DNA from: an uncultured Alphaproteobacteria bacterium
GTDB taxonomy: Bacteria; Pseudomonadota; Alphaproteobacteria; Methylaequorales; Methylaequoraceae
NCBI GenBank assembly: GCA_902563305.1
Contig: CACEWP010000005.1
Span: 4,211-68,210 of the forward strand
Direction of reading: 5' to 3'
Length of the DNA stretch: 64,000 nt
The notes under the pieces are model-generated. The model was not told where the DNA came from and ran no database searches. It worked only from the letters and a program-made list of their open reading frames with translations. The position numbers and the translations under genes are program-made. Below are positions 6,739 through 55,087 of this stretch, piece by piece. How positions within the stretch are numbered: position 1 is the stretch's first letter; every line of letters starts with the position of its first letter.

Positions 6739-6744
6739 ATAATT

Positions 6745-7365
6745 ATGACCATTAATAATTTCTATTTTTCTGGTAGTCTAATTTTTAAATTATGCTTAAT
6801 TCTGTTTTTTTCGATAAACTTTAAGTTGAAAAATGCCCACAGTTTTATTTTAAAAGGCAATGGTCCACAAGTTAAGAACATTGTAGATAATGTTTTTTCT
6901 ACCGAATCTTTTGATGATGAGTTTGATCTTCAATACGATATGCTTTCGAGCGTAGAGGATTTCATAAATTTGCCTGAAGGTGGAACACCATGGGAAGTAT
7001 TCGCTGACACTGGTATGGATGAATATATATTTGAAGATAAGGAAGGGTTCGAATGGACAGGTGTTCGTCCAAAATTTACTGAAAATATAAAAATGTTAGA
7101 AGATAAAAATATATTAGTTCAAGGCTACATGTTTCCTCTCGATCAAAACGAAAAGCAACAAACTTTCTTACTCATCCCATTTCCAGTTCACTGTCCATAT
7201 TATCCGCATGCTACATCGAATTTGATTATTGAAGTCCATGCTAACAAACCAATTCTTTTTTCATATGACCCTATTAATATTGAAGGAAAATTGGAGTTAG
7301 TTCCTAAAGATGATTTATACAATATCTTTTTTCGTCTAAAAAATGCTAAACTAGCATCCAAATAA
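6745..7365 (+). CDS. DUF3299-like exported protein
   Basis: Signal-like N-terminus. The motif block VQGYMFPLD...TFLLIPFPVHCPYYPH...NLIIEV resembles the DUF3299 pattern (GfmvPle...FlLvP...C.H.ppPp.NqiV.V) as I recall it. Confidence 0.6.
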   Translation: MTINNFYFSGSLIFKLCLILFFSINFKLKNAHSFILKGNGPQVKNIVDNVFSTESFDDEFDLQYDMLSSVEDFINLPEGGTPWEVFADTGMDEYIFEDKEGFEWTGVRPKFTENIKMLEDKNILVQGYMFPLDQNEKQQTFLLIPFPVHCPYYPHATSNLIIEVHANKPILFSYDPINIEGKLELVPKDDLYNIFFRLKNAKLASK

Positions 7366-7377
7366 ACAATAAAAAAT

Positions 7378-7806
7378 CTATATACATTGATTGCATATTC
7401 CATTGACCTCTAGGTTCCAGTTCAACGGCATAAACGTTTTTTCTTCTACATTTTCTTTGATTGCTGAAGGTAACTCACACATATGCGATTCAATAACCTT
7501 GCCGCATACATTGCAAATCATAAACTGAGAACCCTTATGGAAATGATCAGCTTTACAAGCTGAATAGGCATTTAAACTTTGAATTCTGTGAATGAAATTA
7601 TGTGATTGCCAAAATTCTATTGCTCTGTAAATGGTTGGTGGTTTAGGATTATTTAAAACTCTTGCTAATTTTTTTAACACTTCGTAAGCTTTAAGTGGTT
7701 TTTCACTATTAGCAATTACCCGTAACACATTTTTTCTTGGTTTTGTATACCTATGTTTATTTTTATTACAAAAATCTATTGCTTTCTTTTCAATGGTTTT
7801 GGTCAT
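7378..7806 (-). CDS. zur: Fur-family metalloregulator, probably Zur
   Basis: 142 aa with a winged-helix N-terminus and CNVCGK...CNQC structural-zinc Cys pairs. It is convergent with the His-rich ABC operon. Confidence 0.75.
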   Translation of the reverse strand: MTKTIEKKAIDFCNKNKHRYTKPRKNVLRVIANSEKPLKAYEVLKKLARVLNNPKPPTIYRAIEFWQSHNFIHRIQSLNAYSACKADHFHKGSQFMICNVCGKVIESHMCELPSAIKENVEEKTFMPLNWNLEVNGICNQCI

Positions 7807-7822
7807 AAATATCTTATATTTT

Positions 7823-7843
7823 TTTAGTTACATTATAACATTT
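7823..7843 (-). promoter_or_regulatory. Candidate Zur box in the zur/yqhA divergent promoter
   Basis: The minus strand reads AAATGTTATAATGTAACTAAA, against the remembered proteobacterial Zur consensus AAATGTTATAATATAACATTT. It lies about 20-35 nt upstream of the zur start. Confidence 0.4.
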
Positions 7844-7953
7844 TATAAACTTATAATAAAATTATATTATTATATTTTTGATTAAATTTTTTGTTTAAAA
7901 GTATCTTATTTTCTTATTGATTTTAATAAAAAAAGATTGTTAATAAATTAAAT

Positions 7954-8469
7954 ATGTTAAAGAATTTTGAAAAATTTATAGAAAACCTAATGTTTGCGTC
8001 TAGATGGTTGTTAGCTCCATTTTATTTTGGTCTTATAATATCACTCTTTTTTTTATTAATAGTTTTTATTAAGGAAATTATTCATTATATAAGCCATTTC
8101 AGCACAGACGAGACTGAACTTATTTTATTTATTCTTACACTGATTGATTTATCTTTTGCCGGTAATCTATTAATCATAGTTATTTTTTCAGGATATGAAA
8201 ATTTCGTTTCTAAAATAAATATTAGGAATCATGAAGACAAACCAGAGTGGATGGGAACAGTTGATTTTGGTGGTCTAAAGTTAAAATTGATTTCTTCGAT
8301 TGTTGCTATTTCAGGGATTCATTTGTTAAAGATTTTTTTCGGACTTGAGAATTACACTCAAAGTCAAATACTTCTTTTTATAGCAGTGCATTTTACTTTT
8401 GTCTTAAGTGGAGTTTTGTTAGCATATATGGATTCATTAATAGCAAAAAGTAAATTAAAAATGAAATAA
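7954..8469 (+). CDS. yqhA: UPF0114/YqhA-family inner-membrane protein
   Basis: N-terminal FASRWLLAPFYFGL motif and 4 TM helices typical of YqhA. Confidence 0.75.
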   Translation: MLKNFEKFIENLMFASRWLLAPFYFGLIISLFFLLIVFIKEIIHYISHFSTDETELILFILTLIDLSFAGNLLIIVIFSGYENFVSKINIRNHEDKPEWMGTVDFGGLKLKLISSIVAISGIHLLKIFFGLENYTQSQILLFIAVHFTFVLSGVLLAYMDSLIAKSKLKMK

Positions 8470-8529
8470 TTTAACTTTGTTAGGAATTATTACTGTATTT
8501 TCTAATTTAATTCTTTTTAACTTTTATCT

Positions 8530-8679
8530 CTACTGACAGCAGTTATCTGAATCAACACAACATCCATCTTTGCAACATTTGCTGCTACAATCTCCTGTTT
8601 TACAACCATCACTACAACATCCATCTGCACAACAAGTGTACTTGCAGCAAGTCTCATTAATATTATTTATTTTACTCAC
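8530..8679 (-). CDS. 49-aa cysteine-rich (14 Cys) metallothionein-like peptide
   Basis: The minus strand has SD AAGGGGG, 5 nt, then GTG, and encodes (M)SKINNINETCCKYTCCADGCCSDGCKTGDCSSKCCKDGCCVDSDNCCQ*. The region is stop-free for 50 codons in an AT-rich context, and the plus frames are closed. It is absent from the track (<60 aa). Confidence 0.65.
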   Translation of the reverse strand: MSKINNINETCCKYTCCADGCCSDGCKTGDCSSKCCKDGCCVDSDNCCQ

Positions 8680-8706
8680 TTTAACCCCCTTTATATCTCT
8701 AATAAT

Positions 8707-8734
8707 ATTATATCATTAATATAATAAGTATCAA
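8707..8734 (-). promoter_or_regulatory. Candidate sigma70-type promoter of the Cys-rich peptide gene
   Basis: The minus strand reads TTGATA-16 nt-TATAAT, with the -10 box about 30 nt upstream of the GTG. Confidence 0.4.
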
Positions 8735-8799
8735 TTAAAATACATTGCTTAAAAAGCACCAAATTTTGTTGTCACAGGAAATAATAAATTTTTTATTTC

Positions 8800-9714
8800 T
8801 CAAGGGATTACATTATAATTAATTGGAAAAAAACCTTCTACTTTTTCAGTCTTTGGTGCAGTATGATAAAAAGAAATTGTTAATTTATTATTGTTTCTAT
8901 ATATCTTAAAATTAGTCGACATATTATTACTCATCTTATAAGTCTTAATTTTTATATTGAAAAATTTCTTTGTTAATTTTTCGATATTAATACACTCTGC
9001 ACGCAACCTACTAGTGTCAGGACTAAATAAAATAATTCTTTCTAACTTCTGGTTTTTATATTTGATATCATTTAACATATCATGAAATTCTTTTGTTTTG
9101 ATTGAATTATTTTTGGGAATACTATTGTTATGTTTAATAAATGTTTTATTTTTAAAATTAAATATAATTAAAAAGCATGTAAAAATCCCATAAGTGTAAT
9201 AATATTCATTATTAGAAATTTTGATCAATTCATTTTTTGCAGTTTTTATTTTTCCATTGGAAGAGATTCCAGTGTAATTTTCTGATTTGTAAGGACGAAA
9301 TTTAATGTATCTATTTTTTCGATAATTAATAATAGCGATATAGTCATTTAGTTTTTTTTTCGATAACTCTTTAATTAAGAAATTGTAAATATCTTTTTCA
9401 TACTTTTGATAATTCCTCGTAAATTTAATTAAAGTTGGATTTATTTTATATTGTCGACTAATTTTTAAACCTAGATTAGTTAAATGAAAATTAAGAGAAT
9501 CTTTATCAAAAAATAAAAATCTATTTTTTCTTAATTCACTAAAGATAATCAAGTACGATTTTACCGTTTGTTCTAAAGGTTTATTTCTAAAGTTTGATAA
9601 CTGGATTAGTTTAGGAAAAAATATTAAGGAAATTATTTGTGTTAAGGTTGCCTTTGATCCTAGAGGAAAGTAATACTGAAAATAAGAAAATATGATTTTT
9701 AAATATACAATCAC
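8800..9714 (-). CDS. Hypothetical protein (ORFan-like, Lys/Asn/Ile-rich)
   Basis: 304-aa ORF, visibly more AT-rich than its neighbours. No motif recognised. Confidence 0.5.
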   Translation of the reverse strand: MIVYLKIIFSYFQYYFPLGSKATLTQIISLIFFPKLIQLSNFRNKPLEQTVKSYLIIFSELRKNRFLFFDKDSLNFHLTNLGLKISRQYKINPTLIKFTRNYQKYEKDIYNFLIKELSKKKLNDYIAIINYRKNRYIKFRPYKSENYTGISSNGKIKTAKNELIKISNNEYYYTYGIFTCFLIIFNFKNKTFIKHNNSIPKNNSIKTKEFHDMLNDIKYKNQKLERIILFSPDTSRLRAECINIEKLTKKFFNIKIKTYKMSNNMSTNFKIYRNNNKLTISFYHTAPKTEKVEGFFPINYNVIP

Positions 9715-9928
9715 TTTTAATAATCTTATGGTTGTGTTTAATATAATATATTGAACGTATGATTGTGTTCACAGATTATTATAATGTCTCTGTGATATCA
9801 ATAAAAAATTTTTTCAAGAATTTAATTTGATAAAAAATGGACTTAAATGATCAACCAAAAGATTTTATAAATTTAATGATTATGAAATACCGGTTATGGT
9901 GGTTAGAATTAAGTATCAAAGTTTTGTA

Positions 9929-10777
9929 CTATATCATACAAGTATGCATTTTTTGGGGTGGTGTTGTTTCATCTTTTATCTTATCAAGACCATCGGTGTT
10001 GAAGTCTTTACTTTTTTCTTTTGGAATTGCCAATATATTTTCCTGACAAATATTTGGGAAATAATTAATATTTGATTTGTTGTGATTGTGAGGATTGAAT
10101 AGATACGATAATACCCAGTATAATGCATAACCAGACTTTAAAAGTAATTTATTTAATTTATTTGGGAAAACTCTTTGATTTTCAATCCACATGATTGGTC
10201 TGAATTTATTTATGAATAATTTACCTCCATTAAGGACATCTAATTCCATACCTTCCACATCAATCTTAACAAAATTACATTTTTTTAAATGTAAAAATTT
10301 ATCAAGATTGGTGATTGATATTTTTTGTTTAGCATCACTTTTATCAGGAAAGAAAGGATTATCTTTATTCTGAACAAGACTGACACCGCCAAAGTTGTCT
10401 ACAACATTATAGTTAATGAATGTTAAATCTATAGTTGTTTTTTCTAACCCCACGCCTGATCGAAATAACTCAATATTATATTTTTTATTTTTCTCTACAT
10501 TCATTTTTAATATTTCATAAATTTCTTTTTGAGGTTCAAATGAAAAAACTTTCCCTGATTTACCGATTTTCTTTAAGAATGGAACTGTAAACGCTCCAAT
10601 ATTGGACCCGATATCAAAAACGTAGTCACCTTTTTTGATAAATTTCATAATAATTGACAACTCAATTTCTGAATACTCTCCATATAATTTTAAACTGTTT
10701 CCAATATACAAGTCTGAACTTAGAGAATGAAACATTCCATGTTTAGTCTTTAATAAATCTACATTACAACTCATCAT
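9929..10777 (-). CDS. FkbM-family SAM-dependent methyltransferase
   Basis: FDIGSNIGAFTVPF (SAM-binding glycine loop), VFSFEPQKEIYEIL and FVKIDVEGMELDVLNG match the FkbM family pattern. Confidence 0.75.
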   Translation of the reverse strand: MMSCNVDLLKTKHGMFHSLSSDLYIGNSLKLYGEYSEIELSIIMKFIKKGDYVFDIGSNIGAFTVPFLKKIGKSGKVFSFEPQKEIYEILKMNVEKNKKYNIELFRSGVGLEKTTIDLTFINYNVVDNFGGVSLVQNKDNPFFPDKSDAKQKISITNLDKFLHLKKCNFVKIDVEGMELDVLNGGKLFINKFRPIMWIENQRVFPNKLNKLLLKSGYALYWVLSYLFNPHNHNKSNINYFPNICQENILAIPKEKSKDFNTDGLDKIKDETTPPQKMHTCMI

Positions 10778-11008: not shown

Positions 11009-11250
11009 GCCGATGAGACTTCTGTTGCCCGGTGGTCCCACAACCGCGCTTTCTTAATTTAATTAAGCAGCGAGTGCCATTTCATTATCATTGGCATTTA
11101 TATGTTTAGTCCGATAACGTTGGTACTATTCCGGGCAAAGTTTTTGACTATTCACACGCACGTCGATCCTGTTTCACCCCCATAAAATGTGGTGGAGGTG
11201 CCGGGTACCGCCCCCGGGTCCGCATCGGCTCAAAATCAAACGTTTATTGC
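10976..11250 (-). ncRNA. ssrA: Two-piece (permuted) tmRNA gene, alphaproteobacterial type
   Basis: The minus strand reads acceptor piece ...GCCGATGCGGACCCGGGGGCGGTACCCGGCACCTCCACCA, an 8-nt spacer, then coding piece GGGGGTGAAACAGGATCGACG.... The tag reading frame GCC AAT GAT AAT GAA ATG GCA CTC GCT GCT TAA (ANDNEMALAA*) is at 11063-11095. The 5' boundary is approximate. Confidence 0.85.
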
Positions 11251-11356
11251 CATAGCTGAAATTCAGCAATTTAATAATAATGAATGATAAAAAAAATAAA
11301 ACCTATAAATTGTTTTAGTATAAAAAAAAGCTAATATAGAAAAATCAGAGTTTTTT

Positions 11357-20853: not shown

Positions 20854-23524
<2,671 letters not shown>

Positions 23525-23527
23525 TTT

Positions 23528-24367
23528 ATGGTATACAGGTCGTCTTTTGGTAGGGGATTTCAGTCAAATTTTCTCAACAAATATGTCTTAAGTCTAATAT
23601 TATGTTTAATTTCTTCACTAATACTTTTTATACTTTCTATTATAGACTCTAAACCCCTAGAATCTTTAAGATATAATACAATCTCATTTTCAAAACCTTT
23701 TATTGTTTTTGTTGGAAAGCCCTTAGATATATTAAATAGCACATTTGTATTTATTAAAGAACTTAAAGAAGCTAAAAAGATCAATAAACTCTTAACAGAG
23801 GAAAATAGTAAATTAAAGAAGCAAATAGATAAAGATAATTTCTTAATACTTGAAAATTATAGGCTTAAAAATTTATTAAAAATAGATGAGACTGATTACG
23901 TAAAAAAAATTACAGCAAGAGTATTGATTGATTCATATAAAGATGGGGGCTCATTAATATATATTGATGTTGGAAAGAGTGACGGCTTGAAAATTAATGA
24001 TATTGTTTTTAATGAAAATGGATTATTAGGTAGAATTATAGAGTTAGGTTCGTTTTCATCAAAGGTTATGACAATCTTCAATGAAAATTCTGTTATACCT
24101 GTTCTATCAGTCAAATCAAAAAAATCATTTTTCGTAGAAGGAAGTGCAAGCAAATTGAAGCCTAAGCATATTGAAAGAATGTTTGACCTTGATCATGGTG
24201 AAATTATAGTTTCTACTGATGCAGCTGGATACTTCAAAGAAGGTATAAGAATTGGAAGAGTCGTTAAAACATTAAATGAAGTTTTTGTGGTACCATTTGC
24301 AAAAAAAACAGATTCAATTTATGTTAATGTTTTGATTTATGATTTTAAAAACGAATTTAAAGACTAA
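23528..24367 (+). CDS. mreC: Rod-shape-determining protein MreC
   Basis: TM, coiled coil (ENSKLKKQI) and beta domains, in the position after mreB. Confidence 0.85.
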   Translation: MVYRSSFGRGFQSNFLNKYVLSLILCLISSLILFILSIIDSKPLESLRYNTISFSKPFIVFVGKPLDILNSTFVFIKELKEAKKINKLLTEENSKLKKQIDKDNFLILENYRLKNLLKIDETDYVKKITARVLIDSYKDGGSLIYIDVGKSDGLKINDIVFNENGLLGRIIELGSFSSKVMTIFNENSVIPVLSVKSKKSFFVEGSASKLKPKHIERMFDLDHGEIIVSTDAAGYFKEGIRIGRVVKTLNEVFVVPFAKKTDSIYVNVLIYDFKNEFKD

Positions 24368-24378
24368 TTATATTACTA

Positions 24379-24876
24379 ATGTTCAATTCCCTCATATTTA
24401 GATCTTTACCATATCTATTTGTCTTGTTTTTTATTTTTTTTGAGTCAACACCAAATTATTTTTTTGAAAATGAAATGATTAAACCTTTGATGTTTTTTTC
24501 AGTTCTGTATTGTTGGTTAATAAATGACTTTAAAAGATTTTCACCAATAAGCATTTTCATATTCTGTAATTTATATGATCTAATTCAAGGTGGAGCAGTT
24601 GGTATTACTGCATTATTTTTTTTATTATTACAATACACCCAAAGAAAGAAATTTAATGATCTTATTTCTAATGACTTTAAAGAAACTTGGATGAAATTTA
24701 TTATAAGTCTGACATTTTACTTGTCTTTAACTTCCTTTACTAGACTGTTCTTTGATACTGAAGCAATAGTTTTAAAGAATTTGATAATCTGTTTTATTTT
24801 TAGCATTGCTTTGTTTCCATTATTTTTTTCAATTACGGACAAATTGAGTTATAAATTTAGAAATTATAATGAATAG
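24379..24876 (+). CDS. mreD: Rod-shape-determining protein MreD
   Basis: Polytopic 165-aa membrane protein between mreC and mrdA. Confidence 0.75.
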   Translation: MFNSLIFRSLPYLFVLFFIFFESTPNYFFENEMIKPLMFFSVLYCWLINDFKRFSPISIFIFCNLYDLIQGGAVGITALFFLLLQYTQRKKFNDLISNDFKETWMKFIISLTFYLSLTSFTRLFFDTEAIVLKNLIICFIFSIALFPLFFSITDKLSYKFRNYNE

Positions 24877-26641
24877 AGAAATTAACCATGAAAAGAAAAT
24901 CCGAAGAAGAACACTTGTTATAGGGTTATCTAAAACCTTTTTTATGTTATTAGTTTCAGTAAAACTTTTTTATCTTCAAATACTTCAAAAATCAAAGTAT
25001 GGAAAACTTTCAGATACTAATAGGATAAAAATAAAGATTTTATATCCTGAAAGAGGAACTATTTATGATCTTTATAATAATGAGATTGCATCAAATAAAA
25101 TTGATTACCAACTAAGTATCTTTAAAGACAAAAAAAATTTAATCAATAGGTATATTAATAAATTAAAAGGTCATATTAATTTTTCAGATAAAGATCTAGA
25201 GGAAATTAAAATAAATATAAATAAACAAGATCTTTCAGATTTTATAACAATAAAAAGAAATTTAAGTTGGAACGATCTAGAGTTTTTTGAATTTATGAAA
25301 AATAAGTTTCCTTTTCTTTTAATTACAAAAGAAAAAGTTAGAAACTATGATAATGAAATGATTTTTTCTCATGTGCTTGGTTATGTAGGTTTTAATAAAA
25401 ATATTAAAAAGAAAAAATTATCGAATCTTAAGGTTGGTATTTCAGGAATTGAGAAAAAACTTGACTCTAAATTGCTTGGTGCGGACGGATGGATCAAATT
25501 TGAAACAAATTCTAAGGGAATTGTTAAAAAAGAATTAAATAAAAAATTTGCAATACCTGGCGGAAATATAAAAACACATTTAGTGAGAGAAATTCAAGAA
25601 AAAGCTTTTAATGAGATGCAAGGTATTAATGGAGCAGTTGTTATGATTGATTGTAAAGATGGAGGAGTTAATTGTCTTTATTCATCACCCTCTTTTAATA
25701 ATAATGAGTTTAGTGACGGAGTAAGTAGAGAAAGATGGAATGAATTAATTTCTGATGAGTATAACCCTCTTCTTAATAGATGTATTGCTGGTTTATATTC
25801 GCCTGGTTCAACTTATAAATTAATCACGGCACTTCATGCTATAGAAAATGAAAAATTTGGCAAAAATCAAACCTATTTTTGTTCTGGACACATTCAATTT
25901 GGTAGTAGAAAGTTCCATTGTTGGAAAAAGGAAGGTCATGGAAAGTTAGATTTACATGGAGCAATTATGAAATCTTGTGATTGTTATTTTTACAATTTAG
26001 CTAAAAAAATTGATATTGACAAACTTGCGAGTTTTTCAAATAAATTTTCATATGGAAATGTTACTGGAATTGATATTCCTAATGAACTTAACGGAATAAT
26101 GCCTAATAGAAATTGGAAAATTCAGAATAGAGGAGAGAAGTGGCAACGCGGTGAAACTCTGAATAGTGCAATTGGCCAGGGTTTTATGTTATCCACTCCT
26201 CTTCAAATCACTTTAATGACAGCCAGAATTGCCACAGGTAAAAATATAATTCCAAGTATAATTTATAAAAAAAGGAACTTTGAGCGTCTGAATATTAGTG
26301 AAGAAAATCTTAATTTTATAAAGAAATCTATGTTCTCAGTTGTAAATGATAATAATGGGACAGCTTATAATTCGCAACTTACTGGTTCTCTAAAAATGGC
26401 CGGAAAGACCGGTACTTCGCAAGTTAGAAAAATTACTTTAGAAGAGAGAGAAGATGGTGTTATAGAAAATGAAAAATTAGATTATAGATTAAGGGATCAT
26501 TCAATCTTTACATGTTTTGCTCCTTTCGATGATCCAAAATATTCTCTCACAGTTGTTGCTGAACACATGGGAAGTGGTTCAAAAGTAGCAGCCCCAATTT
26601 CGAAAAAAATAATGCAATCAGCTTTAAAGAAATTTACTTAA
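24869..26641 (+). CDS. mrdA: Penicillin-binding protein 2 (elongasome transpeptidase)
   Basis: SxxK (SPGSTYKL) and KTGTS motifs in mreBCD-mrdA-rodA order. Confidence 0.9.
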   Translation: MNREINHEKKIRRRTLVIGLSKTFFMLLVSVKLFYLQILQKSKYGKLSDTNRIKIKILYPERGTIYDLYNNEIASNKIDYQLSIFKDKKNLINRYINKLKGHINFSDKDLEEIKININKQDLSDFITIKRNLSWNDLEFFEFMKNKFPFLLITKEKVRNYDNEMIFSHVLGYVGFNKNIKKKKLSNLKVGISGIEKKLDSKLLGADGWIKFETNSKGIVKKELNKKFAIPGGNIKTHLVREIQEKAFNEMQGINGAVVMIDCKDGGVNCLYSSPSFNNNEFSDGVSRERWNELISDEYNPLLNRCIAGLYSPGSTYKLITALHAIENEKFGKNQTYFCSGHIQFGSRKFHCWKKEGHGKLDLHGAIMKSCDCYFYNLAKKIDIDKLASFSNKFSYGNVTGIDIPNELNGIMPNRNWKIQNRGEKWQRGETLNSAIGQGFMLSTPLQITLMTARIATGKNIIPSIIYKKRNFERLNISEENLNFIKKSMFSVVNDNNGTAYNSQLTGSLKMAGKTGTSQVRKITLEEREDGVIENEKLDYRLRDHSIFTCFAPFDDPKYSLTVVAEHMGSGSKVAAPISKKIMQSALKKFT

Positions 26642-26643
26642 AA

Positions 26644-27732
26644 ATGATAGAAAATTTTATTAAATTAAAAAATTTAAATTGGTTATTTATTTTTTTAGTT
26701 TCTTTCTTGTCTTTTGTTGGTTTGATAATGATCTATAGCGCAACCATCGGAGAAGAATCAAAAATTTTTATATCCCATATATATAAAATTCTATTTGGTT
26801 TTTTTTTGATGATACTTGTAAGTTTAATTGATTTAGAATTTTGGAAAAGAAATGCGTATTTTTTTTATTTAATCGGACTTATTCTTCTAATATTGGTTTT
26901 TTTTTATGGTTATCTTGGAAAAGGAGCTAGAAGATGGATTAATTTTCTTGGTTATAATTTTCAACCTTCAGAGATTATGAAAATTTTTTTGATAATCACT
27001 TTGGCAAAGTTTTTTGATGAGAAAAAAATTAGAGAACCAAGGGATTATCTCTTTCTGATTCTTCCTATTATCTTAGTGACCATACCTTTTGTATTAATCT
27101 TGATTCAACCTGATCTTGGAACAGCAATGCTAATTCTTTTTGTAAGTATTGTAATTTTTTTTATGTCTGGAATTAATTGGAAATTTTTTTTTTTTTCAGG
27201 CTTGTGTACAATCATTATTACTCCTTATCTATGGGGAGGTCTTAAGGTGTATCAAAAGAAGAGAATTCTAACTTTATTTAACCCTGAAAGTGACCCCCTC
27301 GGCTCAGGCTATCATATTATTCAATCTCAAATTGCAGTTGGTTCAGGAGGAACTTTTGGTAAAGGCTGGACTAAGGGAACACAATCCCATTTAGATTTTC
27401 TTCCAGAAAAACATACTGATTTTATATTCTCAATGCTAGGAGAGGAATTTGGTTTTTTAGGAACTTTGTCTGTTATTGGACTTATATGCCTTATTACTTA
27501 TATGGCTTATGATATTACTGGAAGATTTATACACAATAATTTTAACAGGATGGTTGGCATAGGAATTATCTCTAACTTTTTCTTTGCATCCTTTATCAAT
27601 ATATCAATGGTTATAGGGATATTACCAATAGTTGGTCTACCGTTACCTCTAGTATCTTATGGTGGTTCCTCAATGCTGACATACTTTATTGGATTTGGGA
27701 TAATTTTATCATTAGATAGAAATCAAAGTTAA
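26644..27732 (+). CDS. rodA: SEDS peptidoglycan polymerase RodA
   Basis: FtsW/RodA/SpoVE family (QPSEIMK, HTDFIFS, SYGGSS). Confidence 0.9.
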   Translation: MIENFIKLKNLNWLFIFLVSFLSFVGLIMIYSATIGEESKIFISHIYKILFGFFLMILVSLIDLEFWKRNAYFFYLIGLILLILVFFYGYLGKGARRWINFLGYNFQPSEIMKIFLIITLAKFFDEKKIREPRDYLFLILPIILVTIPFVLILIQPDLGTAMLILFVSIVIFFMSGINWKFFFFSGLCTIIITPYLWGGLKVYQKKRILTLFNPESDPLGSGYHIIQSQIAVGSGGTFGKGWTKGTQSHLDFLPEKHTDFIFSMLGEEFGFLGTLSVIGLICLITYMAYDITGRFIHNNFNRMVGIGIISNFFFASFINISMVIGILPIVGLPLPLVSYGGSSMLTYFIGFGIILSLDRNQS

Positions 27733-28767
27733 TTATAAATCTCCTTTTTCGGACAACAAAATAGCAATCTTTCTTGTTGATTTGATTCTACTGAGAGTAA
27801 TCAAAATTACTACTAAAAGTGGAACACTCAGAAACATTCCTGCAATTCCCCAAAATTTCCCCAAAATTGTTAAAAAAATTATCATAACAAGAGGACTTAT
27901 ATTAAGTGTTTTTCCCATCAGTTTGGGTTCTAAGATATTTCCAATATAAATTTGAACAAGTGAGAGACACAAGAAAGTAAACAATGGTTCAAAAAAGTTT
28001 AAAAACTGAATTATTGAAAAAAATAGTGGTATTAAAATTGACAAAACGGAACCAACGAATGGAATAAAATTAAGAAAGAATGATAGAACCCCAAAGGTAA
28101 TAGCTAAATCATTTTTGAGAACAAATAAAGAAAAAAAAGTTAGTAGTCCGGTTAATATACTTGTGAGAGTTTTAAGTTGAAAATAATAAAAAATATCCGA
28201 ATTAATTTTGTTGAGTATTCTAATTTTTGGAGCTGAAAATATTGATTTTATTTTCTTTATAAAATTTTTTTCCTCTACAACAAAAAATATAAGAAAAATT
28301 ATTATAAAAGAAAAATTTCCAGCGAAATCTGAAAATCTATTTAGAACTTTTGTGAATATTGAAAATAAATCCAATGAATTCAAAAATTCATCGTTTTGAA
28401 GAAAATTATTAATAAATGTGTTTGATAATATTGAAATAACCTTTTCAAAGTTATCTTGATAGACTGAGGATTTTTGTATTACACCGTCAAGGTTAAATTT
28501 AAGGATAAGCCAGAGAAAATAAAGGACAATAAATACAGCTAAAAACATTATAGGTATTGCAGTAACTTTGCTTAAGTTAATTTTTAATCTTTGGTGAATT
28601 AAATCAATTAATCTGGATGTGATTGATTTTATTATTAGATAAAATATTAAAGATAAGAAAAATGGAAGTAATATAAACTTTCCAAAGTACATTAAGATAA
28701 AGAAAAAAAATATATACAAAATAATATTAGTAATTTTCATTGATCTATTTTTTTTTATAATTCTCAA
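27733..28767 (-). CDS. AI-2E/PerM (UPF0118) family transporter
   Basis: Polytopic protein with C-terminal ...GKFWGIAGMFLSVPLL... typical of the family. The alternative ATG at 28740 would remove the overlap with the upstream lipoprotein gene. Confidence 0.7.
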   Translation of the reverse strand: MRIIKKNRSMKITNIILYIFFFFILMYFGKFILLPFFLSLIFYLIIKSITSRLIDLIHQRLKINLSKVTAIPIMFLAVFIVLYFLWLILKFNLDGVIQKSSVYQDNFEKVISILSNTFINNFLQNDEFLNSLDLFSIFTKVLNRFSDFAGNFSFIIIFLIFFVVEEKNFIKKIKSIFSAPKIRILNKINSDIFYYFQLKTLTSILTGLLTFFSLFVLKNDLAITFGVLSFFLNFIPFVGSVLSILIPLFFSIIQFLNFFEPLFTFLCLSLVQIYIGNILEPKLMGKTLNISPLVMIIFLTILGKFWGIAGMFLSVPLLVVILITLSRIKSTRKIAILLSEKGDL

Positions 28768-29440
28768 GAATCTGTGTCATTTTTGTTGTTCCAAATAAAT
28801 CTGAGTCTGTTTCCTCTATTCTATTACTTTTTATAAGACCAATTCCCTTCGCATACCATTCTTCAGATGTTATATTTATTTCAATCGATCCAATCTCGCT
28901 ATCACCAATAAATTTTGTTTTACCTTCGCCTCTAACTAACATACAGTCATTAAATTTTCCAAGGGGCGTAGAAACAAACTCACTTGTTGAGATAATCTCA
29001 TAATTTATTTTGAAATTGGTCGTTGCTCTATAATCATAGTATGGATAACGTTTAAGAATCAAAAAAGTTTTACTTTCCACTGACCATTTTTTACCTTTTT
29101 CATAAGGAAGGGGCAAAACTACTCTTTTCTTTTTTTCAGGGTTAATTTTATTATCTTTAGCAAAAGCGAAGCCGTTTCTGTAGATTCCATTGTTTTCTTT
29201 TTTATAAAAAAAGATAGATCCATCTTCTCTTAGAAAAGGATAGATAAAGCTTTTTTTGCCGTCAATTTCTAGGAGTTTTTTACCAAGTGATAAGTTAACT
29301 TTTTTATAAATTGTTTTTTTTTCTACTTCAGGTTTTATCTCTATTTTATAAGACCAAGATTTTATTTTGTCTAATGGAAAGTAGGAATCATTAGTCTCTG
29401 AACAACTAGCTAATAGAACAAAAAGAAAGAGATATTTCAT
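28745..29440 (-). CDS. Lipoprotein of unknown function (paralog of 55092-55790)
   Basis: Lipobox LLASC. Blocks shared with the second copy: YFP...W.Y, DG S, K(K/E)W, DC..(V/I).G.G...FIGD...G.I...I...E....GIGL. Confidence 0.7.
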   Translation of the reverse strand: MKYLFLFVLLASCSETNDSYFPLDKIKSWSYKIEIKPEVEKKTIYKKVNLSLGKKLLEIDGKKSFIYPFLREDGSIFFYKKENNGIYRNGFAFAKDNKINPEKKKRVVLPLPYEKGKKWSVESKTFLILKRYPYYDYRATTNFKINYEIISTSEFVSTPLGKFNDCMLVRGEGKTKFIGDSEIGSIEINITSEEWYAKGIGLIKSNRIEETDSDLFGTTKMTQILENYKKK

Positions 29441-29961
29441 TACTTTTCTGGCAATAACTGATTTGGCATATCAAAAAAATTTAATTTACTGCTTACTGTG
29501 GTTGTTTTTTCTTTCTTTAATACTGATGAAATTATATTCTTTTTATTTTCGTCTATATTCTCCCCCATTTGAGGTATTCCATTTTTTAAATTTACAAGTG
29601 CTTTTGAAATTCTCTCGTGTACTTCTTTATTATATTCTAAACTATATGATCTTGGAGTACTTAACCCTGCAAGATCATCCATATTTGTAATCCACAGAAA
29701 GATTGCTCCTTCTGAGTTAATTAGTGCGTTAGGTTCATAGACTTGCGCTGCAACTAGCCTAAACCTATCTGGTAATGAGTCATTTGTTGGCCAACCTATA
29801 AGATCTTTATAAGAATTATAGGTTACTATATAAAAAAACGTTGTTAATATAATCATCGACGATTTTACTAACCAGTGAAAATTAGTTCGCAAGTTAAATA
29901 AAACTAGCAAAAAACCTAAAATAACATAACAAATTATTATTAAAAAAATTTCTGAATTCAT
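29440..29961 (-). CDS. Two-TM membrane protein of unknown function
   Basis: 173-aa ORF with SD AAGGAAAGG upstream. Its stop shares 1 nt with the next start (TAATG). Confidence 0.65.
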   Translation of the reverse strand: MNSEIFLIIICYVILGFLLVLFNLRTNFHWLVKSSMIILTTFFYIVTYNSYKDLIGWPTNDSLPDRFRLVAAQVYEPNALINSEGAIFLWITNMDDLAGLSTPRSYSLEYNKEVHERISKALVNLKNGIPQMGENIDENKKNIISSVLKKEKTTTVSSKLNFFDMPNQLLPEK

Positions 29962-29974
29962 AATGACCTTTCCT

Positions 29975-30571
29975 TTAATTCTCTGGGACTAATTTTTTAA
30001 AAAGACTACCAGAGACACTTACTTTACCATTTTGAGTAATATTAAATCTTGTTGCAGTTTTTTCTACACCTTTTTTTTCTAAATTTATTGTTCCATAATA
30101 AATGACTTCTAACTGTGGGTTGACTTTCTCAACTTTTACATTCACATCTACGGGTTGCTCGGTTTTTGTTGCATAGTAATGTACATTAACAATATATTCT
30201 CCTGGAACAACAGCTCTAATTGTAACAACTTCCTGATTAAGTGGATTTTGAACTTTTTCACCGTTAATTTCAATTGTATCATTCAGTAGTCCTCGATCGT
30301 CTCTGTCTAAATGCACAAACCCTGCTTCTTTACCTCTGAACCAAACCAGATCTCCAGTTGGACTTTGAACATAAGTATCCACATCATCCGGATTATTATC
30401 CTTCCAACTTACTGTTATTATATATTCAGCTTTTGGATTTATAACTCCTGTTTTGGGAATTGGATTCATAAAGATTATAGCAAGAAACATTAAAAGTGTA
30501 AAAGATAACAGAATATTGAATAACAAATCAGTAAAAGGGTCTGCCCTCAATCTTCTTCCAGAGTATGACAT
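29975..30571 (-). CDS. Bitopic protein with an ExbD/TolR-like N-terminal anchor and a novel beta-rich periplasmic domain
   Basis: N-terminus RRLRADPFTDLLFNILL...IIFM resembles the ExbD/TolR TM with its conserved Asp. The remainder (YIITVSWKDNNPDDVDTYVQSPTGD...VPGEYIVNVHYY) is not ExbD-like. Confidence 0.6.
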   Translation of the reverse strand: MSYSGRRLRADPFTDLLFNILLSFTLLMFLAIIFMNPIPKTGVINPKAEYIITVSWKDNNPDDVDTYVQSPTGDLVWFRGKEAGFVHLDRDDRGLLNDTIEINGEKVQNPLNQEVVTIRAVVPGEYIVNVHYYATKTEQPVDVNVKVEKVNPQLEVIYYGTINLEKKGVEKTATRFNITQNGKVSVSGSLFKKLVPEN

Positions 30572-31281
30572 TATAAACTATTATCTATGCTTACTTCGGA
30601 TATCTGGTTTAAAACCGAAAACAACTCATCACATCCACTTTCGAGGTTATAATATTGAATTGCTATCATTACTCCTGCCACTAATGCTGAGAGAGTTGTG
30701 TATAAAGCAACTCCCATTCCACTTCCCATTGTTGTTAAAACTCCTTGCAAAAGAGTTACATCGAAAGTTGTAATATCAGAAAGAGAACCTAACATAATAA
30801 TGAAACCAATTACAGTCCCAATTAACCCTAGTTTCAACATAATATCTGAGCAAAACCATCCAAATTCGTAAAAACCTACTGTTTTTTTTATATAACTATC
30901 GAGTATTTGAACGTGAGATGTTGCTCCATTTTTTTTTAGTCCTATTAAATCTTTAAAGTAATCTCTCACTATTCCGTCAGAAATCTCTCCTTTTGAAGTT
31001 AATATTAAAACATCTTCAATAATTCTAAGTTTAACATTCTCGTCTAAAAGACTTTTTTTAATAATATGAGCTTTATTTAATTCATCAGAGATAATGAAAG
31101 TATGATAAAAGCAATGCATACTGATTATAATAAACAAGACTAAAATTAAACTTGTAATGTAACTTTTATCTGAACTAATTATTTTAACAATTAGTCCTTG
31201 GTCAAAAATAAAAAAAATAAAAAATGTCATTAAGCTAAATTGTAAAAGCCATTTTAAAAATAGTTTATGTACCCTTGTCAT
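30571..31281 (-). CDS. MotA/TolQ/ExbB-family proton-channel protein
   Basis: C-terminal signature KLGLIGTVIGFIIM and GVALYTTLSALVAGVMIAIQYYN, with 3 predicted TM helices. Confidence 0.7.
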   Translation of the reverse strand: MTRVHKLFLKWLLQFSLMTFFIFFIFDQGLIVKIISSDKSYITSLILVLFIIISMHCFYHTFIISDELNKAHIIKKSLLDENVKLRIIEDVLILTSKGEISDGIVRDYFKDLIGLKKNGATSHVQILDSYIKKTVGFYEFGWFCSDIMLKLGLIGTVIGFIIMLGSLSDITTFDVTLLQGVLTTMGSGMGVALYTTLSALVAGVMIAIQYYNLESGCDELFSVLNQISEVSIDNSL

Positions 31282-31289
31282 AGTTTAAT

Positions 31290-31802
31290 TTAATAATGAA
31301 TTAAGGTTTCAATTGGGACGCTAATATTTTTTCTTCCATTTAAAAAATTTAATTCAATTAAAGATAGAAAACAAGTTAATGTCCCACCAGATTTTTCTAA
31401 AAGTTTACAAGCTGCATTTGCAGTTCCGCCTGTAGCTAAAAGGTCATCAACTAAGAGTATATTTTTGGATTTAAGATTTACATTAACTTCTAATGTATCT
31501 TTGCCATATTCAAGGTCGTAATCAATGCTTATTGTTTTACCAGGTAGTTTATTTTTCTTTCTAATCATCACAAACCCTTTATTTAATTTGTAAGCAAGCG
31601 ATGATGCGAAAATGAAACCTCTTGCATCAATTCCTGCAATTAAATCAAATTTATAATTTTTTATTAAGTCATATAAGCTATCAACTGTGGCTTTAAATGC
31701 TTGGTCATTAGAAATCAAGGTGGAAATATCATAAAAAAGTATCCCAGGTTTAGGGTAATCTGGGATCTTAGAAATAAATGTTTCAATCTCTCTTATCTGC
31801 AT
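31290..31802 (-). CDS. apt: Adenine phosphoribosyltransferase
   Basis: PRPP-binding motif ILLVDDLLATGGT, 170 aa. Confidence 0.9.
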   Translation of the reverse strand: MQIREIETFISKIPDYPKPGILFYDISTLISNDQAFKATVDSLYDLIKNYKFDLIAGIDARGFIFASSLAYKLNKGFVMIRKKNKLPGKTISIDYDLEYGKDTLEVNVNLKSKNILLVDDLLATGGTANAACKLLEKSGGTLTCFLSLIELNFLNGRKNISVPIETLIHY

Positions 31803-31942: not shown

Positions 31943-32527
31943 ATGAATTCATTAGAGAAAAAATTTAAATTAATTGATGCGTCATTTAAAATAATTGAGA
32001 TTGAAGGTTGGAATAATTTTTCTTTAAAAAAGCTAGCTGAATCTCAAAAAATTGCGCATAAAGAAATCATCAATATTTTTAAATCAAAAAATCAAATTCT
32101 TAAGGAATTTTCAAAAATGATAGATCATAAAGTAGAAAATAATTTTGATATCAGGGATTTAGAGAACACATCAATAAAAGATAACTTGTTTGAACTAATT
32201 ATGCTCAGACTTGAATATATGCAACAGTACAGAAAAACTCTAAAAATTATCATTGAAGTTTTTAAAACAAATCCGTTGATTGCAAAATCTGTCACTACAA
32301 ATATTTTGGATTCACTAGATTTTTATTTAGAATTAACTAATGCATACGAAGATTCAATTTTTGATATTTTCAAAAAGAAATTAATTTTTGTTATTTATGG
32401 TTATATATTTACAGTTTGGTTAGATGATGATTCAAATGAATTATCAAAAACTATGTCAGAATTAGACAGACTTTTGACATTTTCAGAAAAATTAGCTCTT
32501 AACTTTAAAAATTATACCCCATTTTAA
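31943..32527 (+). CDS. TetR/AcrR-fold protein (regulator or COQ9-like)
   Basis: N-terminal HTH-like LIDASFKIIEIEGWNNFSLKKLAESQKIAHKEIINIFKSKNQIL. It sits next to ubiB and ispB. Confidence 0.55.
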   Translation: MNSLEKKFKLIDASFKIIEIEGWNNFSLKKLAESQKIAHKEIINIFKSKNQILKEFSKMIDHKVENNFDIRDLENTSIKDNLFELIMLRLEYMQQYRKTLKIIIEVFKTNPLIAKSVTTNILDSLDFYLELTNAYEDSIFDIFKKKLIFVIYGYIFTVWLDDDSNELSKTMSELDRLLTFSEKLALNFKNYTPF

Positions 32528-33836
32528 CGTTTTTAAGAGCATTTTGTTGTCTTTTGTTCAAGTCCTTTTCACTGAACCCACTTATTAGCTCATGGAATAG
32601 TTTGTACCAATTTAGTTTAGCATCTAGGTGAAGAAATACTGACCCCAGACCAATCGCTGCTCTGTCCATAAAAACAAACTCTCGAGGCGGTTTGACACCT
32701 CCAATTTTTTTTAGTTCTTTGTGAACTTTTGATGCCGCTTCAGCTCCGTATGTAGAGGAATTAGTATCTTGCATCTTCCTTATTTTGTCTTCCATAAGGG
32801 GAGAGTAAAGAAATTTTGCCCAAATGTTTAAAATGTCAATTAGGTCTTTAGAAATATTTTCAAATCCCCAGCTTTCGTAGGCATGTACTGCTAAATCTTG
32901 ATTATTTTGTTTTATAGCATAATAGAGATCAATAACTCCTTTTACAAATGATGGTTTGAAAATTCTAATACAACCAAAATCTAGAAGTTTAATGTTTCCT
33001 TTATCATCAGATAAATAATTTCCTAAGTGTGGATCACCATGAATTATTCCATAGTTATAAAAAGGATAGTACCAGGCTTTAAACATATTTTTAGCAATAT
33101 TTTGCCGGAGTCTATGTGAATGTTTCTTGAAATTTAGAAGTTTTTTTCCAATCAAATAATTCATACTTATTAATCTATTTGTGGAAATAGTTTCATATAC
33201 TTTTGGAATTTTTATTTCTTTAGATTTGTCAAAGATTAGTTGGAATAACTTGATATGTTTTTGCTCTTGAAGATAACTTAATTCTTCTTTAATTCTAACA
33301 CTTATTTCTTTTTGGATTTCCGTGGTGTCGATACTGCTATCAAATTTCTTATAAATTGAGAATATTAATTTTAATTGGTTAATATCGGCTTCAACTATAG
33401 AGTTCATATCGGGATATTGTAACTTACAAACAATCTGCTCACCCTTATGTTCAGCTCTATGAACTTGACCTAGAGAAGCTGCGGCAAAAGGTTGTTTTTC
33501 AAAAGAGTCAAAAGAATCAAGCCAATTGAACCCTAGTTCATTTTTCATCCTTCTTCTTACAAAATTCCAGCCCATCGGTGGAGCATTAGACTGTAATTTT
33601 GCAAGCTCTTTAACGTACTCTTCAGGTAAAAGATCAGGTACAGTGGAGAGTAATTGAGCTATTTTCATAATTGGCCCTTTAAGACCACCTAAAATAGTTT
33701 TTAGTTCCATTGCATTCTTCTCGTGCTCTTTATTTAGAAATTTTGTCTCTAAAAACTTATAGGCAATTGACCCTGCTGATGTGCCTAAATTAGCATATCT
33801 TATTACTCTTTTTGAAAACTTATTAATTTCGTCCAT
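32505..33836 (-). CDS. ubiB: ABC1/UbiB-family atypical kinase (ubiquinone biosynthesis)
   Basis: ABC1 motifs AAASLGQVH...VCKLQYP and HGDPHLGN. Confidence 0.85.
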   Translation of the reverse strand: MDEINKFSKRVIRYANLGTSAGSIAYKFLETKFLNKEHEKNAMELKTILGGLKGPIMKIAQLLSTVPDLLPEEYVKELAKLQSNAPPMGWNFVRRRMKNELGFNWLDSFDSFEKQPFAAASLGQVHRAEHKGEQIVCKLQYPDMNSIVEADINQLKLIFSIYKKFDSSIDTTEIQKEISVRIKEELSYLQEQKHIKLFQLIFDKSKEIKIPKVYETISTNRLISMNYLIGKKLLNFKKHSHRLRQNIAKNMFKAWYYPFYNYGIIHGDPHLGNYLSDDKGNIKLLDFGCIRIFKPSFVKGVIDLYYAIKQNNQDLAVHAYESWGFENISKDLIDILNIWAKFLYSPLMEDKIRKMQDTNSSTYGAEAASKVHKELKKIGGVKPPREFVFMDRAAIGLGSVFLHLDAKLNWYKLFHELISGFSEKDLNKRQQNALKNVKMGYNF

Positions 33837-34016: not shown

Positions 34017-35027
34017 TTATTTAGTTCTTTCTGTTAAGAAATCTGCCAAATTTATCATCTTTTCTTTTTCTTGTGAATCTGAAAATGTTCCTAGACTATC
34101 CTTTGCCATAATTGAGAAATGTTTAGCCTTTTTTATACAATCAGCTTTAACGTTGTATTTATTCATTAATTCAATCACTTTATTAAAGTCACTCTGATTT
34201 GAAGTGTCTTTAGAAATTATAAATTCTATAATTTTTTTCTCTTTTTTGTTACACCTTTTAAAACAGATTATTAATGGTAGAGACATTTTTCCTTCTTTAA
34301 GATCATTACCTGTATTTTTACCAATTGTTTTACAATTTGAAAAATAGTCGAGTGTATCGTCAATTATTTGGTATGCAATACCCAGAAAAGTTCCAAACTC
34401 TGCTAAACTACTTTTTTTTTCGGAACTTACTTCGCTAATCTCGCCCCCTATCTGACAGGCAGCTGAAAATAATTCTGCAGTTTTATGATCAATAATATCT
34501 AAATACTCAGACTCTTTGGTGTGAAGTTTTTTTATTGAGACTAATTGCTTAACTTCACCTCTAGAAATTTTGACTGAAGCTTTTGAAATAATATTTAAAC
34601 AATTAATAGAACCATCATCTATTAACATTCTAAATGCTTTACTGAGTAGAAAGTCTCCAACTAAAATACTTGATTTGTTATCCCAAATGAAATTTGCTGA
34701 AGATCTTCCACGTCTTTTATTGCTATTATCTACAACATCATCATGCAGAAGAGTGGCTGTGTGAATAAATTCAATAATAGAGGCAAGAGTTATGTGTCTA
34801 TTCCCTGTATATTTGCATAATTTTGAGCAGGCAATAGTAAGTAATGGTCTTATTCTTTTGCCTCCAGAATTAATAATGTGACTTGTGAGATCAGAAATTA
34901 AAGATTCACTACCAGCTAAGTTATCTATGATTGATTGATTTATTTTAAATATATCAGGTTCCAGCCACTCAACGAAAGTTTCCAGTGGGTTTTTTAAGTT
35001 TTTTCTTTTTAAATTTATTATGTTCAT
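34017..35027 (-). CDS. ispB: Polyprenyl (octaprenyl-type) diphosphate synthase
   Basis: First and second Asp-rich motifs LLHDDVVD and DDTLD. Confidence 0.85.
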   Translation of the reverse strand: MNIINLKRKNLKNPLETFVEWLEPDIFKINQSIIDNLAGSESLISDLTSHIINSGGKRIRPLLTIACSKLCKYTGNRHITLASIIEFIHTATLLHDDVVDNSNKRRGRSSANFIWDNKSSILVGDFLLSKAFRMLIDDGSINCLNIISKASVKISRGEVKQLVSIKKLHTKESEYLDIIDHKTAELFSAACQIGGEISEVSSEKKSSLAEFGTFLGIAYQIIDDTLDYFSNCKTIGKNTGNDLKEGKMSLPLIICFKRCNKKEKKIIEFIISKDTSNQSDFNKVIELMNKYNVKADCIKKAKHFSIMAKDSLGTFSDSQEKEKMINLADFLTERTK

Positions 35028-55011: not shown

Positions 55012-55087
55012 GCCCAGGTAGCTCAGTTGGTAGAGCAAGCGACTGAAAATCGCTGTGTCGGTGGTTCAATTCCTCCCCTGGGCACCA
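55012..55087 (+). tRNA. tRNA-Phe (GAA), CCA encoded
   Basis: GCCCAGGTAGCTCAGTTGGTAGAGC...CTGAAAA...GGTTCAATTCC...CTGGGCACCA is a canonical cloverleaf with a GAA anticodon. Confidence 0.95.

Follow-up and report, generated by a model that had tools for sequence, protein, structure and literature searches.

The window analyzed here is a stretch of 64,000 nucleotides (nt) from an uncultured alphaproteobacterium (contig CACEWP010000005.1, positions 4,211 to 68,210), and our subject is a run of five minus-strand genes within it, three of which, g1, g2, and g3 (the trio), appear to encode the core of an ion-driven membrane complex. The first of them, g1 (30571..31281, 236 amino acids [aa]), belongs to the MotA/ExbB family. 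It is followed by g2 (29975..30571, 198 aa), a candidate for the "B" subunit that accompanies such channels, by g3 (29440..29961, 173 aa), a third component with two transmembrane (TM) helices, by g4 (28745..29440, 231 aa), a DUF3108-like lipoprotein, and by g5 (27733..28740 with the ATG start taken; the open reading frame is 344 aa), a permease of the AI-2E family. A first-pass annotation, made from the sequence without database searches, had described the five as an energized envelope operon. All five reading frames lie on the minus strand where it had placed them, and each peptide that it quoted was found.

The genes are closely packed. The 1-nt TAATG overlaps reported for g1 and g2 (at 30571) and for g3 and g4 (at 29440) are present, and the spacer between g2 and g3 is 13 nt long, as had been described, and holds AGGAAAGG ahead of g3. 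A further overlap, at 28745-28767 between g4 and g5, depends on the choice of start codon: it exists only if the permease begins at its most upstream TTG (28767), whereas with the ATG at 28740 the two genes are separated by 4 nt. In relatives examined by tblastn, the permease match begins at least a few bases past the end of the lipoprotein match and never overlaps it. Upstream of g1 on the same strand, and ending 8 nt from it, lies a gene that the first-pass annotation did not mention, apt (31290..31802, minus strand), whose adenine phosphoribosyltransferase product matches NCBIfam NF002636 at 209 bits against a cutoff of 125. Given this spacing, the probable transcript consists of six genes rather than five, with apt probably the first. 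The permease gene is probably co-transcribed with the trio, yet it is a clade-specific neighbor that lies outside the conserved module. No terminator-like site was seen on the minus strand from apt to the end of g5, in a promoter and terminator scan that was itself uninformative, as promoter-like sites were fewer than in shuffled sequence. Tight packing is the norm in the window, where same-strand gaps have a median of 3 nt and 33 of 44 neighboring pairs are separated by 15 nt or less, and junction spacing is therefore no argument for shared function. It is conserved synteny, not spacing, that is the real evidence for a functional unit.

To follow that synteny, species-representative genomes were scanned, which gave 79 loci whose neighbors were compared by BLAST and clustering, and family hidden Markov models (HMMs) were applied to 87 cellular loci. 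g1 is syntenic with g2 in all 87, and the complete trio is present in 82, the remaining five ending at contig edges; g3 was found at every one of the 82 loci long enough to show it. The invariant unit is therefore g1-g2-g3, and not the five-gene system of motor pair, 2-TM protein, lipoprotein, and permease that had been proposed. For the larger system speak the same-strand packing, the apparent lack of a terminator-like site, and a gene order kept in about 36 close relatives. Packing of this kind is usual in the genome, and apt and the AI-2E permease adjoin the trio only in those close relatives and at no distant locus. What stood of the expected neighborhood conservation is thus the synteny of g1-g2-g3, while the five-gene set is confined to the close clade and g4 recurs in some lineages, and we consider a five-gene functional system very improbable.

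The trio is distributed across two classes of Pseudomonadota. In Alphaproteobacteria it occurs in the SAR11-like clade of the window (labeled by depositors as Alphaproteobacteria, Rickettsiales, or Pelagibacteraceae), in metagenome-assembled genomes of 2 Mb, in Hyphomicrobiales, and in Azospirillum, and in Gammaproteobacteria it occurs in Granulosicoccaceae, Chromatiales, "Ca. Oxydemutatoraceae," and a SAR86-like marine group. It is also found in genomes of 4.7 to 5.8 Mb, and chromid p1 of Azospirillum brasilense Sp7 (1.75 Mb, NZ_CP012915.1) carries it at locus L095, 5258-7102. That region, at about 954-967 kb of the chromid, is without annotation in the PLSDB record, and its host is cultured and genetically tractable. 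Neighbors vary with lineage and include a Sel1-repeat protein, an SRPBCC protein with a YVTN propeller, and, as read from the sequences, MoxR, DUF58, and vWA genes; in SAR86-like genomes no further gene joins the trio, which is flanked by a fumarase-like and an aconitase-like gene, likewise read from the sequences. Among the closest relatives, identity reaches 97% for g2 and 94% for g1, compared with 74% for apt, and this higher conservation of the two trio proteins points to strong constraint.

Membership of g1 in the MotA/TolQ/ExbB family, which had been proposed from its channel signature, is borne out by a match to Pfam PF01618 (MotA_ExbB) at 31.3 bits, above the gathering cutoff of 22.9. 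The protein has four predicted membrane helices (hydrophobic segments 7-25, 34-52, 147-165, and 190-208), with a cytoplasmic insert of about 80 aa between helices 2 and 3, and the motifs GLxGTVIGF and GMxVALYTTL show little or no variation across the 34 members of a family alignment. By hhalign it aligns with helices 2-3 of Escherichia coli TolQ (E 8.4e-5), and the family-invariant residues T156 and T196 fall on TolQ T145 and T178, which, going by their roles in the literature, we take to be the polar residues that line the ion path in the last two helices. Matches to named members of the family are weak: NCBIfam MotP and PomA models match g1 at 13 to 17 bits against cutoffs above 340, ZorA matches are weak in both NCBIfam and PADLOC (E 0.34-0.37), the NCBIfam one being far below its cutoff, and sequence and profile searches with PDB chains gave weak matches to MotA, PomA, and TolQ only.

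The g2 protein has a short positively charged N terminus, one membrane helix bearing D15 and N19, and a beta-sandwich. In its AlphaFold2 model (predicted local distance difference test [pLDDT] score of 72), the helix spans residues 12-35 and the strands of the sandwich residues 45-187, and Asp15 sits near the cytoplasmic end of the helix. Across 89 diverse relatives that are 30 to 50% identical to the window protein, D15 is kept in 87 and N19 in 69, and W56, D63, D65, D91, G94, and E114 are conserved in all. The invariant acidic cluster suggests a metal- or ligand-binding site. The family is large, with 2,099 clusters at 50% identity reached at E<=1e-3 in an exhaustive profile search and 453 at E<=1e-30; the best 150 of the 2,099 clusters match most of the profile and are for the most part close to 200 aa in length, though fragments and a few longer proteins are among them. 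Several public records give g2 relatives as 173 aa instead of 198 aa. A start at an internal Met such as M28 would yield that length and lose the helix Asp, and entries truncated in this way would hide the B-subunit-like feature from automated annotation.

The beta domain had been likened to the DUF2135/YfaP type, and this holds as domain homology. In hhalign the family profile, over g2 residues 45-140, aligns with YfaP residues 139-218 from E. coli at a probability of 90% (E 1.6e-6), and Pfam DUF2135 (PF09906) matches g2 at 15.5 bits (E 0.018), below its cutoff of 22, with PPC also below cutoff (E 0.13). Sequence comparison of this kind indicates homology to the C-terminal part of YfaP at the level of the domain, rather than membership in the DUF2135 family. 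The parallel does not extend to genetic context. YfaP is encoded in the yfaS (alpha-2-macroglobulin) operon of E. coli and is not paired with a MotA-like gene, and that operon's yfaA, yfaT, yfaS, and yfaQ have no counterpart here, while the g2 family has invariant acidic motifs of its own. Structural searches of the g2 model gave nothing in the PDB at E<=1e-3 and, in BFVD, only generic beta-sandwich matches with low TM-scores; searches with PDB chains returned subtilisin-like proteases only (residues 337-364 and 449-476, E 0.4-0.6). The domain had also been judged unlike ExbD, TolR, or OmpA, and rightly so: hhalign gave TolR a probability of 0.8%, and Pfam OmpA is without a match.

Calling g2 "ExbD-like" is another matter. 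The single N-terminal helix with its Asp, present in 87 of the 89 relatives, supports the comparison, but the term is overstated, as Pfam ExbD is silent on g2 itself and weak in 3 of the 89. Foldseek found no ExbD or TolR match for the model, which is an all-beta sandwich in place of the alpha/beta fold of those proteins; hhalign of the family against the single sequence of E. coli TolR did not pick up the membrane-helix motif; and g2 matches neither of the Pfam models, OmpA and MotB_plug, that a MotB/PomB stator subunit would be expected to match. The case for a B subunit lies in architecture and position, namely, the helix at 12-35, the retained D15, and the 1-nt overlap with g1, directly downstream of which g2 lies in the usual place of such subunits. 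Assignment by position is routine for B subunits, given the divergence of their sequences (PMC12505986).

The nearest characterized counterparts of the pair are ExbB-ExbD and TolQ-TolR, non-flagellar motors of the MotA/ExbB family that have been termed "generic ion transporters" (PMC12505986). The likeness includes an A subunit in PF01618 with both channel threonines kept, a condensed cytoplasmic domain, a presumed periplasmic output, and a small single-helix protein with a membrane Asp encoded directly downstream. The differences are that g1 has four helices, one of them an extra N-terminal helix, whereas ExbB and TolQ have three; that g2 carries a YfaP-like beta-sandwich, lacks the alpha/beta domain of ExbD and TolR, and fails Pfam ExbD; and that an obligate 2-TM protein, g3, takes the place of a TonB or TolA partner and the genes are carried by phages. 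One could still suppose that g1 and g2 are simply the genome's own TolQ-TolR or ExbB-ExbD pair, g1 being in the same Pfam family and its helices aligning with TolQ helices 2-3. This is already contradicted. Phmmer searches of the window with TolQ, TolR, TolA, and TolB of E. coli were negative, which upholds the earlier statement that no Tol-Pal partner is present there, and no NCBIfam Tol or Exb model matches. In none of the loci fetched are tolA, tolB, pal, or tonB beside the trio, the fold of g2 is not that of TolR or ExbD, and the trio occurs in genomes of 4.7 to 5.8 Mb and on the Azospirillum chromid as well. We regard a canonical Tol or Exb identity as almost certainly wrong.

The two membrane helices of g3 stand at its N terminus and are followed by a small alpha/beta domain, as in the AlphaFold2 model (pLDDT of 75), and by a conserved C-terminal tail, F-D-x-P-x-x-L-x-P-x-K. 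The domain would face the periplasm, with which a positive-inside count is consistent. No family in Pfam, NCBIfam, PADLOC, or PHROGs matches g3, nor was a relative found by Foldseek against the PDB (E<=1e-3) or by sequence and profile searches with PDB chains. The lipobox claimed for g4 is present (LLAS|C) with Ser at +2, and the protein is probably on the outer-membrane side. It matches Pfam PF21347 (DUF3108_like) at 24.7 bits, below the cutoff of 27, and its family profile finds in the PDB the "putative lipoprotein" 4fvs (E 0.0014) and 3fzx (E 0.011). Homologues of g4 adjoin the trio in distant lineages (loci L037, L038, L087, and L076), and at L086 one lies upstream of g1 (E 1e-39). This recurrence identifies g4 as a genuine, if lineage-specific, accessory. 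The g5 protein matches the AI-2E transporter family of Pfam (PF01594) at 123 bits (cutoff 34.3, E 1.9e-35).

The trio is also carried by phages. Among cultured phage genomes searched by tblastn, 29 records of Rhizobium and Sinorhizobium phages match g2, and the whole trio was identified by HMM in all three records examined: RHph_I1_9 (EVC04_146-148), RHph_N3_19 (EVB99_065-067), and the temperate phage 16-3 (p038, p040, and p042; locus L139, 3271-5132). Cultured-phage loci with the miniature trio are L093 (4426-5915), L094 (4511-5977), and L139. The cultured-phage genes are all annotated "hypothetical"; in 16-3, the small extra reading frames p039 and p041 are interleaved with them, and p036, immediately upstream, encodes a trypsin-like protease of the periplasm. 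A further 43 IMG/VR contigs match g2 and carry the trio wherever the contig reaches far enough, with neighbors of kinds usual in phages: primase, ribonucleotide reductase, RusA, a ClpP-like protease, bS21, Hsp20, and tRNA nucleotidyltransferase. In cultured phages the genes lie among early or replication functions (such as gyrase, exonuclease, and clamp). PHROGs holds no family for the trio proteins. The phage g1 proteins, of 138 to 180 aa, retain four helices without the cytoplasmic insert and score 22.6 to 33.5 bits against Pfam MotA_ExbB, most reaching the threshold, while viral and cellular g2 are 36 to 55% identical. A prophage origin for the window copy was considered and dropped: its g2 is 44% identical to the best viral g2 and about 48 to 68% identical to distant cellular ones, and its G+C content equals that of the flanks. 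Being nearer to distant cellular copies than to viral ones, it is not a prophage remnant.

Two associations connect the trio to peptidoglycan enzymes. In eight viral loci, g3 runs on at its C terminus into a lysozyme domain of family GH24 (Phage_lysozyme, E 1e-45 to 1e-50; contigs L112, L113, and L118-L124, for example, L122 at 5582-6499). Those contigs also encode bS21, ribonucleotide reductase, and primase. In six gammaproteobacterial loci (L081 at 6045-10697, L083, L084, L085, L090, and L091), the trio belongs to a tightly packed operon of the order YkuD (L,D-transpeptidase)-DUF302-g1-g2-g3, and all except L085 have in addition a gene for a protein with a signal peptide, vWA, TM, and FHA. 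Divergently upstream at these loci lie a sigma-54 two-component system and, usually, a cytochrome b561-like gene. Both phage carriage and the link to peptidoglycan enzymes had been missed in the first-pass annotation.

Such associations could also be taken to mean that the trio is a device for lysis or autolysis. Here g1 would be a gated ion channel or a holin-like depolarizer, the g3 tether would hold a wall hydrolase in check until the membrane potential falls, in the manner of a signal-anchor-release (SAR) endolysin with its pinholin, and the cellular copies would regulate an autolysin or a wall-remodeling enzyme. The two N-terminal membrane helices of the g3-lysozyme fusions, the paring down of phage g1 to four membrane helices, and, in one bacterial group, the operon shared with an L,D-transpeptidase gene all fit, and there is a resemblance to SAR endolysins, a GH24 lysozyme being tethered to the membrane through N-terminal helices beside a membrane-potential-related protein in the eight viral loci. 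The tether, though, is the two-helix g3, the partner is a MotA-like/g2 pair and not a pinholin, and most phage copies have neither a fused lysozyme nor an adjacent GH24 gene. In cultured phages, the early or replication surroundings of the trio are not those of a recognizable lysis cassette. The channel-lining threonines are kept in g1 and the Asp of energy-transducing motors in g2, and streamlined free-living bacteria conserve the trio strongly. We judge the lysis scheme, with its depolarizing g1, restraining tether, and cellular control of an autolysin, to be unlikely.

Another reading is a Zorya-like, envelope-sensing anti-phage system, or superinfection exclusion in the case of phages, with a MotAB-type complex triggering an effector. 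Occurrence in both bacteria and phages is common for genes of defense and exclusion. Like ZorA-ZorB, the trio would include a MotAB-type pair recruited to a function other than motility; g1 has the weak ZorA match in NCBIfam and PADLOC, and vWA, FHA, or MoxR genes lie in some loci. That match (E 0.34) is the only one in PADLOC, none reaching a meaningful level, which agrees with the earlier statement that no Zorya-type partner is visible in the window. Unlike ZorA, g1 is without the long C-terminal tail, and ZorC- or ZorD-like nuclease or helicase genes are not adjacent in any locus. The genes hold a fixed position in a housekeeping context across a whole clade, and g2 is more conserved than apt, in contrast to patchy defense islands; the SAR86-like trio stands alone between its two metabolic genes, and the copies inside phage genomes are a further difference from Zorya. 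A defense role seems to us distinctly unlikely. A canonical Tol or Exb system, a flagellar stator, and Zorya were each considered and rejected.

The reading that we favor, with moderate confidence, is that the trio constitutes an undescribed ion-driven motor of the MotA/ExbB, or "5:2," class with a periplasmic and probably cell-wall-directed output. In this scheme, a g1 oligomer, presumably pentameric, would enclose the membrane helices of what is presumably a g2 dimer. Ions, either H+ or, in these marine organisms, Na+, would pass between T156 and T196 of g1 and Asp15 of g2, and their passage would make g2 rotate or go through a conformational cycle. Through its YfaP-like beta-sandwich g2 may then act on the cell wall or envelope, as may g3 through its periplasmic domain. 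In the source genome, the DUF3108-like lipoprotein g4 is a likely partner on the outer-membrane side, and in some phages the effector may be the lysozyme fused to g3, while apt and the AI-2E permease would be neighbors only. Phage g1 proteins do without the cytoplasmic domain, which can therefore be spared, and this suggests that the output is on the periplasmic side, as does the fact that a lysozyme joined to g3 could work only there. Taken together, the g3-lysozyme fusions and the operon with an L,D-transpeptidase gene suggest that the target is the cell wall.

Several observations weigh against this motor reading. Pfam ExbD (PF02472) gives no match to g2 at E<=1, its matches to the three relatives are weak (best E 0.0051), and the Pfam MotB model does not match g2 either; resemblance to ExbD and TolR is limited to a short P-x-x-D-x-L motif. 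In a divergent high-GC subgroup of the g2 family (P0260 and P0298), Val replaces Asp15. The models of g2 and g3 are of moderate confidence and have no significant structural neighbors, and the 5:2 assembly is presumed. Only a few related viral groups have the lysozyme fusion and only one gammaproteobacterial group has the YkuD linkage, and the placement of the window copy beside mreBCD-mrdA-rodA is clade specific and convergent. As to the high-GC subgroup, Lys replaces Asn19 there, and an apparent fusion of g1 to g2 in P0298, considered as evidence of coupling, was set aside because its N terminus looks like a wrong-frame artifact.

We also raise, tentatively, the possibility that the trio is a peptidoglycan-acting machine, powered or gated by membrane potential and common to bacteria and phages, in which a miniature MotA-type motor moves or controls a wall-active partner in the periplasm. 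The partner would be the g3-fused lysozyme in some phages and, in bacteria, wall enzymes such as the L,D-transpeptidase or a g4-like lipoprotein tether. If true, 5:2 motors would gain a new class of output and, in phages, the trio would be a new kind of lysis or wall-remodeling device.

For the favored motor, a precedent exists in GldL-GldM and PorL-PorM, the motor of type IX secretion and gliding, which is of the 5:2 class and whose B-type subunit extends beta-sandwich domains into the periplasm and drives a process in the envelope. The periplasmic beta-sandwich of the B-type subunit is what the two share, a comparison drawn from published knowledge. No sequence relationship to GldL or GldM was detected. 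The g2 protein has one small domain where GldM forms a long multidomain rod, and the trio belongs to Pseudomonadota and their phages rather than Bacteroidota.

That the system is undescribed, as the first-pass annotation had supposed, appears to be so, with nothing in the profile libraries or the literature searched. Literature on DUF2135, YfaP/COG4676, 5:2 motors, and MotA/TolQ/ExbB-like proteins of SAR11 or phages yielded no description. A survey of MotAB relatives reports many uncharacterized "generic ion transporters" with B subunits identified by position and does not describe the architecture of the trio (PMC12505986).

The trio would add to the MotA/ExbB class an output module in which the B subunit is of a new type and a third protein is obligatory, a module that is strongly conserved in abundant streamlined marine bacteria and small enough for carriage by phages. 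To our knowledge, only a handful of outputs are recognized for this class: flagellar rotation, TonB-dependent uptake, Tol-Pal, gliding and type IX secretion, and Zorya. At 138 to 180 aa, the phage A subunit may be the smallest natural member of the class, which makes it a good subject for studies of structure and mechanism. A function in the cell wall is a concrete, testable hypothesis in view of the lysozyme fusion and the linkage to an L,D-transpeptidase, and Azospirillum brasilense Sp7, Sinorhizobium phage 16-3, and the RHph rhizobiophages are cultured systems in which genetics can be pursued.

Around the operon, the window contains a complete cell-elongation cluster, mreB-mreC-mreD-mrdA(PBP2)-rodA (22445-27732, plus strand), convergent with the operon; the rodA stop, ending at 27732, abuts that of the permease, which starts at 27733, with no intergenic bases. 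Beyond apt lie three ubiquinone-related genes, encoding a weakly matching COQ9-family/TetR_N-like protein (31943-32527, plus strand), a UbiB-type kinase (32505-33836, minus strand), and a polyprenyl diphosphate synthase (34017-35027, minus strand), the first two of which overlap by 23 nt at their 3' ends. The window also carries an alphaproteobacterial permuted, two-piece tmRNA (11011-11305, minus strand, 202.6 bits), evidence that the window is of alphaproteobacterial origin, and a tRNA (55012-55084, plus strand).

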